64,000 nt of DNA from a virus, in IMG/VR virus record IMGVR_UViG_3300045256_000282, positions 64,001-128,000 of that record. The stretch is one strand, 5' to 3'. Shown here piece by piece: positions 2,528-63,154 of the stretch. How positions within the stretch are numbered: position 1 is the first letter of the stretch; each line of letters opens with the position of its first letter. Position numbers and translations under genes: made by a program. A model generated the notes under the pieces. The model made no database searches, had not been told where the DNA came from, and saw only the letters and a program-made list of their open reading frames with translations.

Positions 2528-3661
2528 TTAAGCTTCTCGTAAACCATCGAAATCTTTAGCGTTACACTCTTCTTTAAATCGATCGTATTGCTTGTTCGCA
2601 TAATCCTTAAGACTCAAGGGCTTACCCACGTACGCTTCCATCGTCAGAGGAAACAGTCTACCCATCGAACCCTGACTCTTGATCGCGTAATCCTTGCGCG
2701 TCTCGTGCTTGTTCTCGGCGTGAAACTTCTCAACCTCTTTTAAGGCCCAAGAAAGCTCCTTCGTGACCACGGACTCGACCCTGCTCAGCAGCTCGAGTGC
2801 TGTTGGGTCGTCGCTAAGCGCAGCCCGCATGTCGTCTGCCTTCTCCTCAAGAACGGCCTCAAGGCAGTAACGGAAATTCAAAGCGCCATCTTTTACCTTG
2901 TGCTTCTGCACGTACCAGTCGGTCTTCACCTTGACCATCTGACCGCTCTTCAGCACCCAGATGAACCCCTCGATGTTCTCCATTTCCCGTACTATGTGCT
3001 GTTTAGTATAAAATGCCGTATCTAAATCAAACTTTTTCGTGCAGAATCCTTCGACGAAGTTCTCCCAAACCTTAGGGAACGTCTTGATCTGACTTATCGG
3101 CATGTACTTACCAGTGTACTTGTGCCTTACGTTCAGCACTACCAACTTCTCTTCCTGGTATTTCACAACGATTCGGTTGTTAGGAGCAACGTACTCCATG
3201 TTTACCGTGTACTCCATCCTGTCAAGCTCCAAAAGCTCGGACACGAACTTGTAACCCATGGAATATGCTAAGTTTCTAGCCCAAAGAGCCTGGTCTGACG
3301 ACAGAGTTCCCTTCGTCTTTGTGAACAAAACATTATCTACGACGTATGTTGATATCAAGCTACCGTCCAGCTTGGTCATAACCCTCTCCACATCGCTAGG
3401 CTCGATGCACTGGGTCATAGGATTCTCGTTTAGGTTGAAGAACTTCTCCATAGGACGAGATGCGATCCTGACCGGCTCTCCGCCGTCCATCTCAAACATG
3501 ATCCCGCGAGCCTCAAGAGCCCCGTCCTTCAGCCAATCCGCGTATGAGCAGTACCTGTAGTTGAATATTCGAAACGTTCGACCAAGCATGAACTCGTCCT
3601 TGTAGTAGAAAGAGTTCGAATCTTTGACCAACTTCATCAAGTTACTGTAAAGAAGCATCAT
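2528..3661 (-). CDS. rnlA: RNA ligase 1 (T4 Rnl1 family)
   Basis: EARGIMFE, SRPMEKFFNLNEN, motif I KLDGS, EYVAPNNRIVV, EGFI, KVKTDWY; GAGGTG RBS before ATG 3661. Confidence 0.9.
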   Translation of the reverse strand: MMLLYSNLMKLVKDSNSFYYKDEFMLGRTFRIFNYRYCSYADWLKDGALEARGIMFEMDGGEPVRIASRPMEKFFNLNENPMTQCIEPSDVERVMTKLDGSLISTYVVDNVLFTKTKGTLSSDQALWARNLAYSMGYKFVSELLELDRMEYTVNMEYVAPNNRIVVKYQEEKLVVLNVRHKYTGKYMPISQIKTFPKVWENFVEGFCTKKFDLDTAFYTKQHIVREMENIEGFIWVLKSGQMVKVKTDWYVQKHKVKDGALNFRYCLEAVLEEKADDMRAALSDDPTALELLSRVESVVTKELSWALKEVEKFHAENKHETRKDYAIKSQGSMGRLFPLTMEAYVGKPLSLKDYANKQYDRFKEECNAKDFDGLREA

Positions 3662-3704
3662 AGGCACCTCTACCACATGATAATATGTTTGCAAGGATTT
3701 TACA

Positions 3705-4346
3705 ATGAAAATTTTGCTACTTTCAGACACCCATGGCCAAAAAGTTAAGAATCTACCTAAGGCCGACCTACTGATCCACTCAGGGGACTGGTCAGGTGCT
3801 GGTACGTACAAGGAGACTCGAGACCTCATCGAGTGGCTCCAGACGATCAAGCACAAGTTCGGCAAGATTGTCGTAGTTCCCGGCAACCACGACAGATGGG
3901 TAGAGGCCAATCAAGCACAAGCCAAACGAGAGTTTGCAGATAACGACATGGAGCTTCTGATCCATGAGTCAACCTTCCATATGGGTGCTATCATATACGG
4001 TCACCCGATGACGCCGATCTTCGGTAACTGGGCTTTTATGGGAAATGATCGCCAGAGGAAGCTCGCGGCTGATGCTATACCTCTTGATACCTCGATCCTG
4101 GTCAGTCATGGTCCACCGCTGGGCTACCTGGACAAGCTAGCAGAGAACGGCTCGGCTCCAGGCATGTCCGTAGGGTGTAAGCACCTAGCAGAGGCGGTTC
4201 TACGGGTTCAACCTGAGATGCACGTATTTGGTCACATACACGAGGGAAGTGGAGTCATGACGCTGGGCAAGACATTACTGGTCAACGCGTCACACATGGA
4301 CGAGTACTACACGCCAACGAACGCGTTCAAGGTTGTTTACCTATAA
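3705..4346 (+). CDS. Calcineurin-like metallophosphoesterase
   Basis: SDTH, HSGD, PGNHD, SHGPP, FGHIHE motifs. Confidence 0.9.
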   Translation: MKILLLSDTHGQKVKNLPKADLLIHSGDWSGAGTYKETRDLIEWLQTIKHKFGKIVVVPGNHDRWVEANQAQAKREFADNDMELLIHESTFHMGAIIYGHPMTPIFGNWAFMGNDRQRKLAADAIPLDTSILVSHGPPLGYLDKLAENGSAPGMSVGCKHLAEAVLRVQPEMHVFGHIHEGSGVMTLGKTLLVNASHMDEYYTPTNAFKVVYL

Positions 4347-12194: not shown

Positions 12195-12554
12195 TCAGCT
12201 ATCCTCTAACTTTCGAGGCGCAAAAGGACGTGGAGGACGGCGATCGCGTGAAGCCTTAAGCTTAGCCAAACCAGCGCCTGGGCGAAGGATGTCTTGCGAG
12301 ATAAGTTTTTCTCGAAGAGCCTTAGTTTGTTCTTTTGACATGAAACCGTCGTAGGGCTCACCGACCTTGATCTGTCCTGAAGAGAGGAGCTTTTGACGAA
12401 ACTTTGAGGCGTCTTGGTCTGTCATCTCTCGAGGTAGGCCATACCCAGGAACACGAAGCTCCTGAGCACTAGGGATCTCGCGCTTACTTGGACGAACAGT
12501 GATCTTATCTTTTTGTGATGGCTTGTACATACCTTCTCCTTTTTTGAAGTCCAT
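12195..12554 (-). CDS. Hypothetical basic protein with an internal duplicated R(Q/E)KL(L/I)S segment
   Basis: ORF track. Confidence 0.65.
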   Translation of the reverse strand: MDFKKGEGMYKPSQKDKITVRPSKREIPSAQELRVPGYGLPREMTDQDASKFRQKLLSSGQIKVGEPYDGFMSKEQTKALREKLISQDILRPGAGLAKLKASRDRRPPRPFAPRKLEDS

Positions 12555-12600
12555 GACATGAATATATCATGAGGGAGAAGGGTTAAAAAGGGGAAAGTTG

Positions 12601-12660
12601 TGTAGGCCCCCGTAGGGTCGTCGGGCTTTGTGAGTAGATGACCAATAAACTCGGCCTACA
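12601..12660. ncRNA. Putative 60-nt structured RNA (three-way junction)
   Basis: 8-bp closing stem TGTAGGCC/GGCCTACA enclosing hairpins GAGT/ACTC and CCCG/CGGG, whose loops are complementary (GGTC/GACC). Confidence 0.5.
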
Positions 12661-12664
12661 AAAT

Positions 12665-12738
12665 TGGTTGCGGGACCCAGAATCGCACTGGGGTCTCGAG
12701 GTTATGAGCCTCGCGTGGTACTTCTCCACTATCCCGCT
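12665..12738 (-). tRNA. tRNA-Met(CAT), initiator-like, with non-canonical D and T loops
   Basis: Acceptor AGCGGGA/TCCCGCA with 1:72 mismatch; D stem GTGG/CCAC; anticodon arm CGAGG-CTCATAA-CCTCG; T arm CCCAG-TGCGATT-CTGGG; encoded CCA. Confidence 0.9.
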
Positions 12739-12750
12739 ATATTTAAAGTA

Positions 12751-12877
12751 TTAGGTGCGTGGGGGAAAGCCGCGTCGGAGCCACCCGACAGCACTATCGT
12801 TACATGTTGGCTAACAAGTCCTAGTCGCCTGCTCATCCCTATAGGTTCAACGATATGAATCGTGTCCACGCACCTAA
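12751..12877 (-). ncRNA. Putative 127-nt multibranched structured RNA
   Basis: 12-bp terminal stem TTAGGTGCGTGG/CCACGCACCTAA; internal helices TATCGTT/AACGATA, GTCGGG/TCCGAC, TGTT/AACA; G-U pairs favour the minus strand. Confidence 0.55.
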
Positions 12878-12879
12878 AG

Positions 12880-13083
12880 TTATTCTTTTTCTCTCTGATA
12901 CTCACTGTAAAGCATCAAAAACCAACTAACAACAGCCAAAACACATCCGACCGTTATGCTCTTAATCCTATCACCAGCTATCTGATGGAGCATGGCTCCT
13001 GCGCCAGCTCCCATGAAAACCCCTATGAACTTGGCGAGTGATCCCCATACAGCTTTCTTTAAGGCTTTCTTTTCTAGACTCAT
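12880..13083 (-). CDS. Small two-TM membrane protein (holin-like topology)
   Basis: Two hydrophobic segments with charged termini. Confidence 0.55.
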   Translation of the reverse strand: MSLEKKALKKAVWGSLAKFIGVFMGAGAGAMLHQIAGDRIKSITVGCVLAVVSWFLMLYSEYQREKE

Positions 13084-62082: not shown

Positions 62083-63154
62083 TTATTGCATTCTCCACTT
62101 TTTTTGCGATACGATCCGCTTCTTTTTGTTTAGTCCATGCTACATATGGTGCGTGATCTAATTCCACATATAGCCCCTTATACCACCCTACCACAACTTC
62201 CTGGCTTGTCATATCCCCGCTACTCCAACGATTTTTATGGATGATGAATTTGGTCTGGTAAGTTTTCTTATCTGCGACCATCTCCATCGCACAAGTTACT
62301 GGAGTTATGATTCCTTTGAAACCTCTTAACCTATCCTCAAAAGACCTGTCCTCATCCCCGTTACTGTTGTGCAGTTGAGCCATCACGGTTATGGGGGAGC
62401 TTAGGTACCTGTTCTTAAAACCGTCCAGATACTGCATAACACTGCTAAGAATTTCCCAGGTTTTTGCGTTTGGGTTAAGCTTTGAAAAGGATATCTTTTG
62501 AACATAGTCGATGATGATCTGATCGTACTTCTGATTGTTCCTGATAACGCTCTCTAGCACGTTTTGGATACCTTCGACCGTTGTTGTTGTTCCCGACGTG
62601 GCGTAGCTTGAGTCCGATATTACGTTGATAAACTTGCTTAACTTTTCGATTCCTTCGTTTAGTACTCTTTTTTGCTCGTCAGTAAACTCGTTGTGGTTGG
62701 CATATGGCCAGCCTTTGATAAGGCAGGTTATCCTGTTGTAGACATCAGCGACTGCTTCTTCGTTTGTTATGATCAGGGTTTTTCCCCCTACCATTGCAGT
62801 ATGAAAGGCTATGTTAGAAACAAGTGTCGATTTACCGCCGTTGGTGTTTGCGGCTATCAGATTAATGTTTTTTCCAAAATTCGGTACGATCCCGTTAAAA
62901 GATTTTGTGATAAACTTCTTGCAGCTTTTAGCTGCTTCCATGTACTCTTCGTTTTCTTTGATGATCTTTCTTACGTACTCTTCCCGGTCGGACTCGATGT
63001 TGATGTTTTGTAGAGCTTCAACTTCTTCTTTGGACTTAACGTACCTCTGATAGTCTGCCTCTGTACGGAACCGATCAACAGCCTTCTTCTTTAAAAGAAG
63101 CTTACTTGTTTCTTCTGCTTCCTTTTGAAGGTTTAGTACGTCTTTGTTACTCAC
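62072..63154 (-). CDS. SF4 (DnaB-like) replicative helicase
   Basis: Walker A AANTNGGKS, TNEE, Walker B IIIDYVQ, MAQL, KNR. Confidence 0.8.
   Translation of the reverse strand: MSNKDVLNLQKEAEETSKLLLKKKAVDRFRTEADYQRYVKSKEEVEALQNINIESDREEYVRKIIKENEEYMEAAKSCKKFITKSFNGIVPNFGKNINLIAANTNGGKSTLVSNIAFHTAMVGGKTLIITNEEAVADVYNRITCLIKGWPYANHNEFTDEQKRVLNEGIEKLSKFINVISDSSYATSGTTTTVEGIQNVLESVIRNNQKYDQIIIDYVQKISFSKLNPNAKTWEILSSVMQYLDGFKNRYLSSPITVMAQLHNSNGDEDRSFEDRLRGFKGIITPVTCAMEMVADKKTYQTKFIIHKNRWSSGDMTSQEVVVGWYKGLYVELDHAPYVAWTKQKEADRIAKKVENAINGK

Follow-up and report, generated by a model that had tools for sequence, protein, structure and literature searches.

How does a tRNA gene come to sit in the middle of a protein-coding operon, and what, if anything, do the structured sequences packed against its two ends do there? 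These questions are raised by a short locus in the genome of an uncultured phage. The window analysed here, meaning the whole stretch of 64,000 nt, comprises bases 64001–128000 of an uncultured virus record that is 149 kb long and about 93% complete. The source environment of this phage is a hot-spring mat. Identical DNA in public sequencing runs was found exclusively in hot-spring and microbial-mat metagenomes, possibly including the phage's own source sample; all of these are DNA runs, and no RNA run is among them. A first-pass annotation of the locus had described three back-to-back units separated by spacers of 12 and 4 nt, with a tRNA in the middle, and proposed that the two outer units are new stable RNAs, perhaps directed against tRNA-targeting defences.

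The sizes and coordinates of the three units proved exact, with the amendment that everything is read on the minus strand. In that orientation the order is a 127-nt unit (12877..12751), a spacer, the tRNA (12738..12665), the tetranucleotide AUUU and a 60-nt unit (12660..12601). The 12-nt AU-rich spacer UACUUUAAAUAU (12739..12750, minus strand) forms the 5' leader of the tRNA, with U at position -1, and may serve as the leader removed by RNase P. The 4-nt spacer AUUU (12661..12664, minus strand) follows immediately on the encoded CCA and may act as an entry site for RNase E or exonucleases. Both spacers are AU-rich and unpaired in the predicted fold of the whole transcript. The units themselves are GC-rich (54% for the 127-nt unit, 59% for the tRNA and 55% for the 60-nt unit, compared with a genome value of about 46%). 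Folding of the complete 332-nt gap as a single RNA resolves the three units into separate domains with helix probabilities of 0.84–0.98, a modularity predicted thermodynamically from a single sequence. Abutment is exact: the domains meet the stop codon and the tRNA ends. The likeness to a processed tRNA cluster that had been noted for the layout is borne out. A further hairpin downstream adds to the three folded units, so that the entire untranslated gap of 349 nt is predicted to be folded.

Neighbouring genes all point leftward, on the minus strand, and are co-oriented with the three units. They include genes for dUTPase, thymidylate synthase, a DUF932 protein and metallophosphoesterases, and an RNA ligase of the T4 Rnl1 type is encoded about 9 kb from the tRNA locus. 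The remaining half of the window carries tail and baseplate genes. The best explanation of this setting is that the tRNA gene lies within a leftward operon that carries early and nucleotide-metabolism genes. The gene immediately upstream (12880..13083, minus strand), called from its open reading frame and translation, encodes a predicted membrane protein of 67 aa, and its stop codon lies 3 nt ahead of the 127-nt unit. This protein has a single relative (P0005), 65% identical and of equal length, which is known from one Logan assembly; alignment-based scans for a 67-aa relative of this type recovered no locus. Downstream lies a gene, likewise called from open reading frame and translation, for an orphan protein of 111 aa (12195..12530, minus strand), or of 119 aa if translated from the first AUG at 12554. 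A search of 5.8 billion proteins returned nothing except the protein itself. The database version (P0004) has 111 aa, corresponding to a start at the second AUG. This AUG, at 12530, comes directly after a Shine–Dalgarno sequence and is likely to be the true start codon. A neighbouring gene for a 284-aa protein has five relatives in viral and metagenome collections, none of which is accompanied by the cassette. Open reading frames that cross the units, of 58 aa on the minus and 64 aa on the plus strand, are regarded as non-coding, since they extend into the tRNA and lack a usable ribosome-binding site. A scan for transcription signals found no terminator adjoining the units and one weak promoter match. 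The latter resembles a sigma-70 site (TTTACA, 18 nt, AAGAAT; 12882..12911, minus strand; 9 of 12 positions matching) and would place the start of transcription at about the first base of the 127-nt unit. The count of such sites in the region equals the expectation from shuffled sequence and the sigma-70 consensus may not be that of the host, so the match is a chance-level lead only.

The middle unit is an initiator-type tRNA and is genuine. ARAGORN calls it tRNA-Met (CAU), the sole tRNA in the window. Infernal matches it over the full length of the RF00005 model at 54.4 bits (E 6e-9; gathering score 29), and the minimum free energy fold is a cloverleaf of 74 nt (12665..12738, minus strand) with CCA encoded. 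That the middle unit alone is a tRNA agrees with the Rfam scan, in which RF00005 was the one family matched in the region even at E<=10. The acceptor stem reads A-GCGGG-A / U-CCCGC-A, followed by A73 and CCA. An A1xA72 mismatch, the pairs G2-C71 and C3-G70, A73 and the CAU anticodon together support the initiator-like identity assigned in the first-pass annotation. In the anticodon stem, two of the three G-C pairs that characterize initiators are present (A29-U41, G30-C40, G31-C39), and the D-stem (GUGG/CCAC) carries U11:A24, as in elongators, in place of A11:U24. The D-loop, AGAAGUA, lacks GG, the T-loop is UGCGAUU and the variable loop has 4 nt. Initiator tRNA of E. coli has a C1xA72 mismatch. 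Bacterial tRNA-fMet thus shares with the phage molecule the 1x72 mismatch, G2-C71, C3-G70, A73 and the CAU anticodon, whereas the phage tRNA differs in having A1xA72 instead of C1xA72, two of three G-C pairs, U11:A24 and a 4-nt variable loop.

The first-pass annotation had called the initiator tRNA atypical. The unusual features are present, yet they are not peculiar to the locus; they are typical of a phage class. A scan across the viral collection for CAU anticodon loops followed by the T-loop UGCGAUU matched 53 viral contigs, against about seven expected by chance on a rough guess of the collection size. Among the matched contigs, ARAGORN confirmed 28 distinct tRNAs. In 18 of them positions 1x72 are mismatched, usually as C1xA72; the D-loop lacks GG in nearly all of the 28, and A29-U41 occurs in most. 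One of these tRNAs (L200) has the same D-arm and T-arm as the present molecule, and another (L187) also has A1xA72. Because the unusual features recur among at least 28 distinct phage tRNAs, they are no oddity of this locus. By sequence, the tRNA is assigned to a recurrent, phage-borne class of initiator type whose elbow is remodelled and whose anticodon stem has a weakened G-C stack. During infection this tRNA probably adds to the host initiator tRNA or takes its place.

The 127-nt unit (12751..12877, minus strand) extends from 3 nt past the upstream stop codon to 12 nt ahead of the tRNA and is predicted to form a stem-closed, Y-shaped RNA domain. Its ends are clamped by a perfect helix of 12 bp (UUAGGUGCGUGG/CCACGCACCUAA). 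Inside the clamp the predicted fold contains a 5-bp hairpin, a single-stranded junction of 10 nt and a long, irregular arm with four G-U pairs. The minimum free energy is -50.1 kcal/mol (z -3.54), and none of 200 shuffled sequences folded as well. Among 1597 windows of equal length, it falls within the most stable 0.2%, both raw and after correction for GC content. Helix probabilities are 0.70–0.99, and the fold is unchanged within the 332-nt transcript. The strand that carries the tRNA folds better than its opposite (-50.1 versus -44.4). The clamp is the sole perfect inverted repeat of at least 12 nt within 250 nt in the 64 kb, where about one such repeat is expected by chance; an anchored stem of that length is found at about 2% of random sites. 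The statistics for this unit are good but not overwhelming. As a predicted RNA domain it is convincing but orphan.

The 60-nt unit (12601..12660, minus strand) is a different matter. It is predicted to be end-paired through an 8-bp clamp (UGUAGGCC/GGCCUACA) that encloses two 4-bp hairpins, whose loops are able to pair with each other (GGUC/GACC). Loop A of the unit (UUGGU) could pair with the ACCAA at the tRNA 3' end as well. The fold is statistically weak: minimum free energy is -19.6 (z -1.63), 14 of 200 shuffles were as good, and stability lies in the top 3–5% of windows, with helix probabilities of 0.84–0.94. Anchored stems of at least 8 bp are present at 44% of random sites, and the plus strand folds better than the strand of the tRNA (-25.0 versus -19.6). 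The 60-nt unit does not rise beyond chance and is doubtful as a discrete structured element. Of the proposal that both flanks are structured RNAs, the part concerning the 127-nt unit holds, whereas the 60-nt unit fits it only nominally. Between the 60-nt unit and the downstream gene lies a further hairpin (12532..12581, minus strand; minimum free energy -18.5, z -3.32, one of 200 shuffles as good) that is predicted to sequester the Shine–Dalgarno sequence of that gene. In its 8-bp stem, CCUUCUCC pairs with the Shine–Dalgarno strand GGAGAAGG, and the stem encloses an inner hairpin of 9 bp.

Non-tRNA RNAs beside phage tRNA genes have been recognized since the work on T4 and T5. The precedent invoked for the locus is real and annotated. 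In T4 (NC_000866), the species 1/2 RNAs (rnaC, rnaD) follow tRNA-Arg, rnaD at 1 nt and rnaC at 6 nt behind it. T5 (AY692264) has six such RNAs among its tRNAs (RNAIII, RNAIV, RNA2H, RNAI, RNA1 and rna2), of which RNAIII, RNAI and RNA1 are found directly behind tRNA-His and RNAIV. Most of these stable RNAs are closed by a terminal stem, and a compensatory change in phage Eps7 preserves the T5 RNAIV clamp. The present units resemble them in being non-tRNA sequences on the same strand, a few nucleotides from a tRNA and end-paired, the T4 and T5 RNAs measuring 100–170 nt. They differ in other respects. The 127-nt unit has neither sequence nor covariance-model similarity to the T4 and T5 RNAs. A tRNA-like T-arm occurs in T4 rnaC and in T5 RNA1 and rna2 but is absent from both present units on either strand. 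The clamps of T5 reach about 20 bp and are AU-rich, whereas the present units have GC-rich clamps of 12 and 8 bp. Large tRNA arrays surround the T4 and T5 RNAs, in contrast to the single tRNA inside a protein-coding operon described here. One sequence identity did turn up: the clamps of T5 RNAIV and of the 60-nt unit are the same letter for letter (UGUAGG...GGCCUACACAA). Homology was rejected, as this stem is not constant among T5-like phages, one G-C pair being replaced by A-U in SpoonbillGilly and Eps7, and the motif was found beside no tRNA in a scan of the collection. The identity is probably due to chance. The best reading by analogy is that the locus would be the same kind of thing as the species 1 and 2 RNAs of T4 and RNAIII and RNAIV of T5.

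Comparable arrangements also exist beside tRNAs of other uncultured phages. At one locus (L002), a stem-closed unit of 157 nt (z -3.4) abuts an amber-suppressor tRNA; its sequence is unrelated, and as a candidate homologue of the 127-nt unit it was rejected, the alignment not being significant (371 of 500 shuffles scored as high). At two others (L177 and L159), a stem-closed leader (z -4.1 and -2.5, respectively) precedes a solitary initiator-type tRNA by 8 nt, and the clamp and a 3' hairpin are common to the two leaders, whose middle part varies. A further locus (L156) has stems on both flanks of the tRNA. Over the 28 tRNAs of the class as a whole, the frequency of anchored flanking stems does not exceed that at random sites.

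Relatives of the flanks were sought widely. Neither flank matches any family in Rfam 15, even at E<=10, in line with the view that they belong to no known family. When the 341-nt region was compared by BLAST with 50,697 phage records, the tRNA part alone found matches, and megablast of 8 kb around the locus against phage records gave nothing. The same genome holds no second copy of the cassette. In four related phage genomes, no cassette was found by BLAST of the region or by ARAGORN on the whole genomes; these relatives either have no tRNA or have a tRNA that lacks such flanks, and the region is hypervariable between them. The second tRNA of the same genome (Ile-UAU) and the tRNA-Met of one relative (G001) lie between genes without flanking domains. 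In 1.7 Mb of phage loci, among them the tRNA regions of T4 and T5, a covariance model built on the 127-nt unit recovered that unit alone. Neither clamp was found with a different cargo beside a tRNA in viral contigs. The clamp-plus-gap pattern of the 127-nt unit had no viral and two bacterial matches, a MITE and a low-complexity repeat. The former, from Pseudarthrobacter, has an 11-nt identical terminus and was set aside, being within about one match expected by chance and carrying unrelated cargo. The pattern TGTAGG..GGCCTACACA gave 55 matches in a scan of the collection, none of them beside a tRNA. Among these matches is a 13-member group of 84-nt elements, which lie mostly inside a coding region. 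Public contigs aligned over the region yielded tRNA-Met genes of other organisms over the tRNA, and no variants of the flanks. A resemblance to CRISPR repeats was discarded as well: two probes of 18–19 nt gave scattered single matches in bacterial genomes and no arrays sharing the hairpins. Covarying homologues, to which the first-pass annotation had looked for confirmation, thus appeared neither in the phage records nor in the four relatives, the viral and bacterial pattern scans or the 1.7-Mb covariance-model search. The flanks appear from these searches to be lineage-specific.

What could such flanks do? A tRNA inside a protein-coding operon poses a particular problem, since its excision leaves the upstream message with a new 3' end and the downstream message with a new 5' end. 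Stem-loops are known to protect message ends, as in the 5' hairpin of ompA and the 3' hairpins of T7 that are processed by RNase III. The present units are similar in that stable, end-paired structures lie exactly where tRNA processing would create ends. They differ in that the 127-nt domain is branched and no simple hairpin. Our preferred reading, held tentatively and at somewhat less than even probability, is that the flanks are cis-acting domains for processing, insulation and message-end protection around an operon-embedded tRNA. Transcription, each cleavage step and the stabilizing role are all put forward as conditional parts of this model. (i) The whole 349-nt gap between the 67-aa and the 111-aa gene would be transcribed together with the neighbouring genes. 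(ii) RNase P would cut at the 5' end of the tRNA, past the 12-nt AU-rich single-stranded leader. (iii) RNase E and 3' exonucleases would trim at AUUU, behind the encoded CCA. Short AU-rich single strands are the kind of site used by RNase P, RNase E and exonucleases. (iv) The 127-nt domain would then stand at the new 3' end of the upstream message and block 3' exonucleases; alternatively, it may be released as a stable by-product RNA. (v) The 60-nt hairpin domain would become a 5'-terminal stem-loop of the downstream message, whose ribosome-binding site would also be locked in a hairpin of its own. (vi) A fully folded, untranslated gap would moreover deny Rho a loading site.

Several observations point towards this cis-acting role. 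The three domains are predicted to fold independently, and the 127-nt domain is among the most stable predicted folds in the window. The four loci described above (L002, L177, L159 and L156) show the same architecture in unrelated sequence, and the stem-closed RNAs annotated in T4 and T5 are precedents. The genes are co-oriented, the scan for transcription signals detected no adjoining terminator and a single weak promoter match, and a regulatory hairpin of its own is predicted for the downstream gene. Sequence conservation is not needed for domains of this sort, in keeping with their absence from every relative; since the flanks appear lineage-specific, the notion that any stable fold will do fits better than a conserved trans-acting RNA. 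The phage's own Rnl1-type RNA ligase implies that tRNA biology matters to it, and such ligases may be linked to tRNA-targeting defences, as reasoned from PMC10264068. Against the same reading, the tRNA(Ile-UAU) of this genome and the tRNA-Met of the relative lack such domains, which are thus not required for embedding a tRNA. A simple hairpin is enough to protect an end, and the three-way fold of the 127-nt unit exceeds that need. The 60-nt unit is at the level of chance, and anchored stems across the class occur at the frequency of random sites. Finally, there are no homologues, and the structures are predictions from one sequence.

Other readings place the function elsewhere or deny it. The 127-nt unit, and possibly the 60-nt unit, may be independent, stable small RNAs, excised together with the tRNA, that act in trans against host defences aimed at tRNA or translation, whether as decoys, as sponges or as protectors. 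This is unlikely, although the 127-nt fold is strong and more elaborate than a terminator or a protective hairpin would be, and the stable RNAs of T4 and T5 are known experimentally from the same position. The promoter-like site would start a transcript at the first base of the clamp, but it matches at chance level. The 12-bp clamp has the length of a stacked tRNA acceptor and T-stem and may be a substrate for enzymes that act on tRNA ends; loop A of the 60-nt unit can pair with the ACCA end of the tRNA, but complementarities of 4–5 nt are expected by chance. The RNA ligase would suit such a role, whereas a partner protein did not come to light (a TROVE/Ro gene was not found in the 149-kb genome, with positive controls run, and RVT_1, for reverse transcriptase, had no match). 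PNK3P, peptide deformylase and CCA-adding enzyme families had no match in the genome either. No homologue or second genome copy supports a trans-acting RNA, and both neighbouring genes are orphans or nearly so. A more specific form, in which tRNA-processing enzymes free the 127-nt RNA as an abundant, free-standing small RNA that acts in trans, perhaps as a sponge for a host nuclease directed at tRNA or for some other RNA-binding defence protein, is distinctly unlikely. It would make the RNA a lineage-specific member of a very large, undescribed phage habit of keeping fast-evolving small RNAs in stems beside tRNAs. That the flanks have no function of their own, being spacer DNA left by the acquisition or decay of neighbours and folded by chance stems, is somewhat unlikely for the two jointly and has a higher probability for the 60-nt unit alone. 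That unit has a z of about -1.6 and a clamp of a kind found at 44% of random sites; a single 12-nt inverted repeat in 64 kb is what chance predicts; conservation was not found, and the region is hypervariable between relatives. The 127-nt unit resists this account, with a stability in the top 0.2%, no shuffle of 200 as good, clamp ends that coincide with gene and tRNA boundaries and a GC content 8 points above that of the genome. Large phage genomes are also densely packed, and 350 nt of inert spacer would be unusual.

The remaining proposals invoke known kinds of element. The clamps may work at the level of DNA, as terminal inverted repeats of a small mobile or recombination cassette (MITE-like, forming a hairpin or cruciform) that brought in the tRNA gene. 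Both clamps are perfectly Watson–Crick paired, without G-U, the cassette is absent from all relatives, and the tRNA has close relatives in unrelated phages, such as that of L200. The Pseudarthrobacter MITE with its identical terminus points the same way, but it is within chance expectation and differs in cargo. The cassette is also present as a single copy, no target-site duplications, transposase or homing endonuclease were found near the locus, and it is the non-tRNA units, and not the tRNA, that are bounded by the inverted repeats. The 127-nt unit, moreover, has G-U pairs in its interior and folds better on the tRNA strand (-50.1 versus -44.4), and a DNA-level element is very unlikely. It is extremely improbable that one flank belongs to a known tRNA-associated class: an HDV-like theta ribozyme, a Y RNA (YrlA), a retron msr/msd RNA or a degenerate tRNA. 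End pairing is seen in Y RNAs and retron RNAs too, but the genome has neither a TROVE gene nor a reverse transcriptase, and the T-arm motif is on neither strand. Theta ribozymes are found at the 3' end of phage tRNAs, often tRNA-Met (PMC10879173), and the 60-nt unit is similarly a small structured element with pseudoknot potential directly 3' of a phage tRNA-Met. It has, however, neither the topology that defines these ribozymes nor a G1 cleavage site at the end of the tRNA. The CCA tail, encoded here, is encoded in just 4.5% of theta-ribozyme-associated tRNAs (PMC10879173). A hand-coded search for the nested double pseudoknot (P1, P1.1, P2, P3, the catalytic C in J4/2, and G1 about 1–5 nt from the tRNA 3' end) found no credible fold, and the only solutions were degenerate ones that use the tRNA's own ACCA as P1. 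The lack of any Rfam 15 match at E<=10 speaks against all of these classes.

A new defence-related RNA system at this locus is not supported. With one orphan sequence, an uncultured phage and no relatives found, the locus itself gives little leverage on the function of its flanks. If these domains are general devices for processing and insulation, they would explain how phages can insert a tRNA in mid-operon without destabilizing the neighbouring messages. If they act in trans, they would instead point to a pool of rapidly evolving small RNAs in phages. More transferable is the class of initiator-type tRNAs to which the central gene is assigned, a class that is accessible in cultivable phages.

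The initiator-like tRNA(CAU) of the window (12665-12738, minus strand) belongs to a class that recurs among phages, whose members have the T-loop UGCGAUU, a D-loop lacking GG and an A29-U41 pair. This class comprises 28 distinct sequences from 35 viral loci (within L152-L204), and the 1x72 mismatch characteristic of initiators is present in 18 of the 28. Some of the genes are solitary; others lie inside large tRNA arrays.

Two related contigs, L177 (approx. 890-1058) and L159 (approx. 3081-3250), share a stem-closed leader with the clamp UGUUGGUG/CACCAACA and a conserved 3' hairpin. The leader lies 8 nt ahead of a solitary initiator-type tRNA and differs in its middle portion from one contig to the other. 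In the related phage genome G005 (contig of 108,664 nt), a stem-closed, structured unit of 157 nt (z -3.4, fold stability relative to shuffled sequences) precedes a tRNA of amber-suppressor type (anticodon CUA, 61.9 bits). The pair (locus L002, 3307-3546) lies two genes upstream of a homologue of the window's 284-aa gene, and TAG may be a sense codon in this phage. At phage locus L200 (3070-3216), a copy of the 5' half of a tRNA-Met, consisting of acceptor strand, D-arm and anticodon arm, stands immediately 5' of a complete tRNA-Met, and an ORF resembling HNH-type endonucleases follows downstream. The second tRNA of the genome under study, tRNA-Ile (anticodon UAU; genome positions 62553-62629, minus strand, just left of the window), is tightly set between ORFs, with no structured units on its flanks.

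RNAIV of phage T5 (L090, 6820-6966) was compared with the T5-like loci L205 and L206. Its closing stem extends approximately 10 bp past the annotated ends as an AU-rich helix, and in Eps7 the stem carries a compensatory change from G-C to A-U. A 136-bp element found in two copies in Pseudarthrobacter sp. (L150, 1032-1167 and 2090-2225) has terminal inverted repeats of approximately 21 bp, and its copies bracket a segment of approximately 900 bp. The element resembles a MITE or a pair of insertion-sequence ends and has no relation to the phage tRNA-flanking units.

Downstream of the tRNA locus, the Shine-Dalgarno sequence GGAGAAGG of the orphan gene is sequestered by a predicted hairpin (12532-12581, minus strand; z -3.3). 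Its probable start codon is the AUG at 12530 rather than the one at 12554.

Elsewhere in the window, a 460-aa protein of T4 RNA ligase 1 type, with RNA_lig_T4_1 and T4_Rnl1_C domains, is encoded at 2528-3910 (minus strand), and its gene is overlapped by a metallophosphoesterase ORF on the plus strand (3705-4346). A search of the phage genome for a kinase-phosphatase of the PNK3P type gave no match. The locus may constitute a tRNA-repair module.
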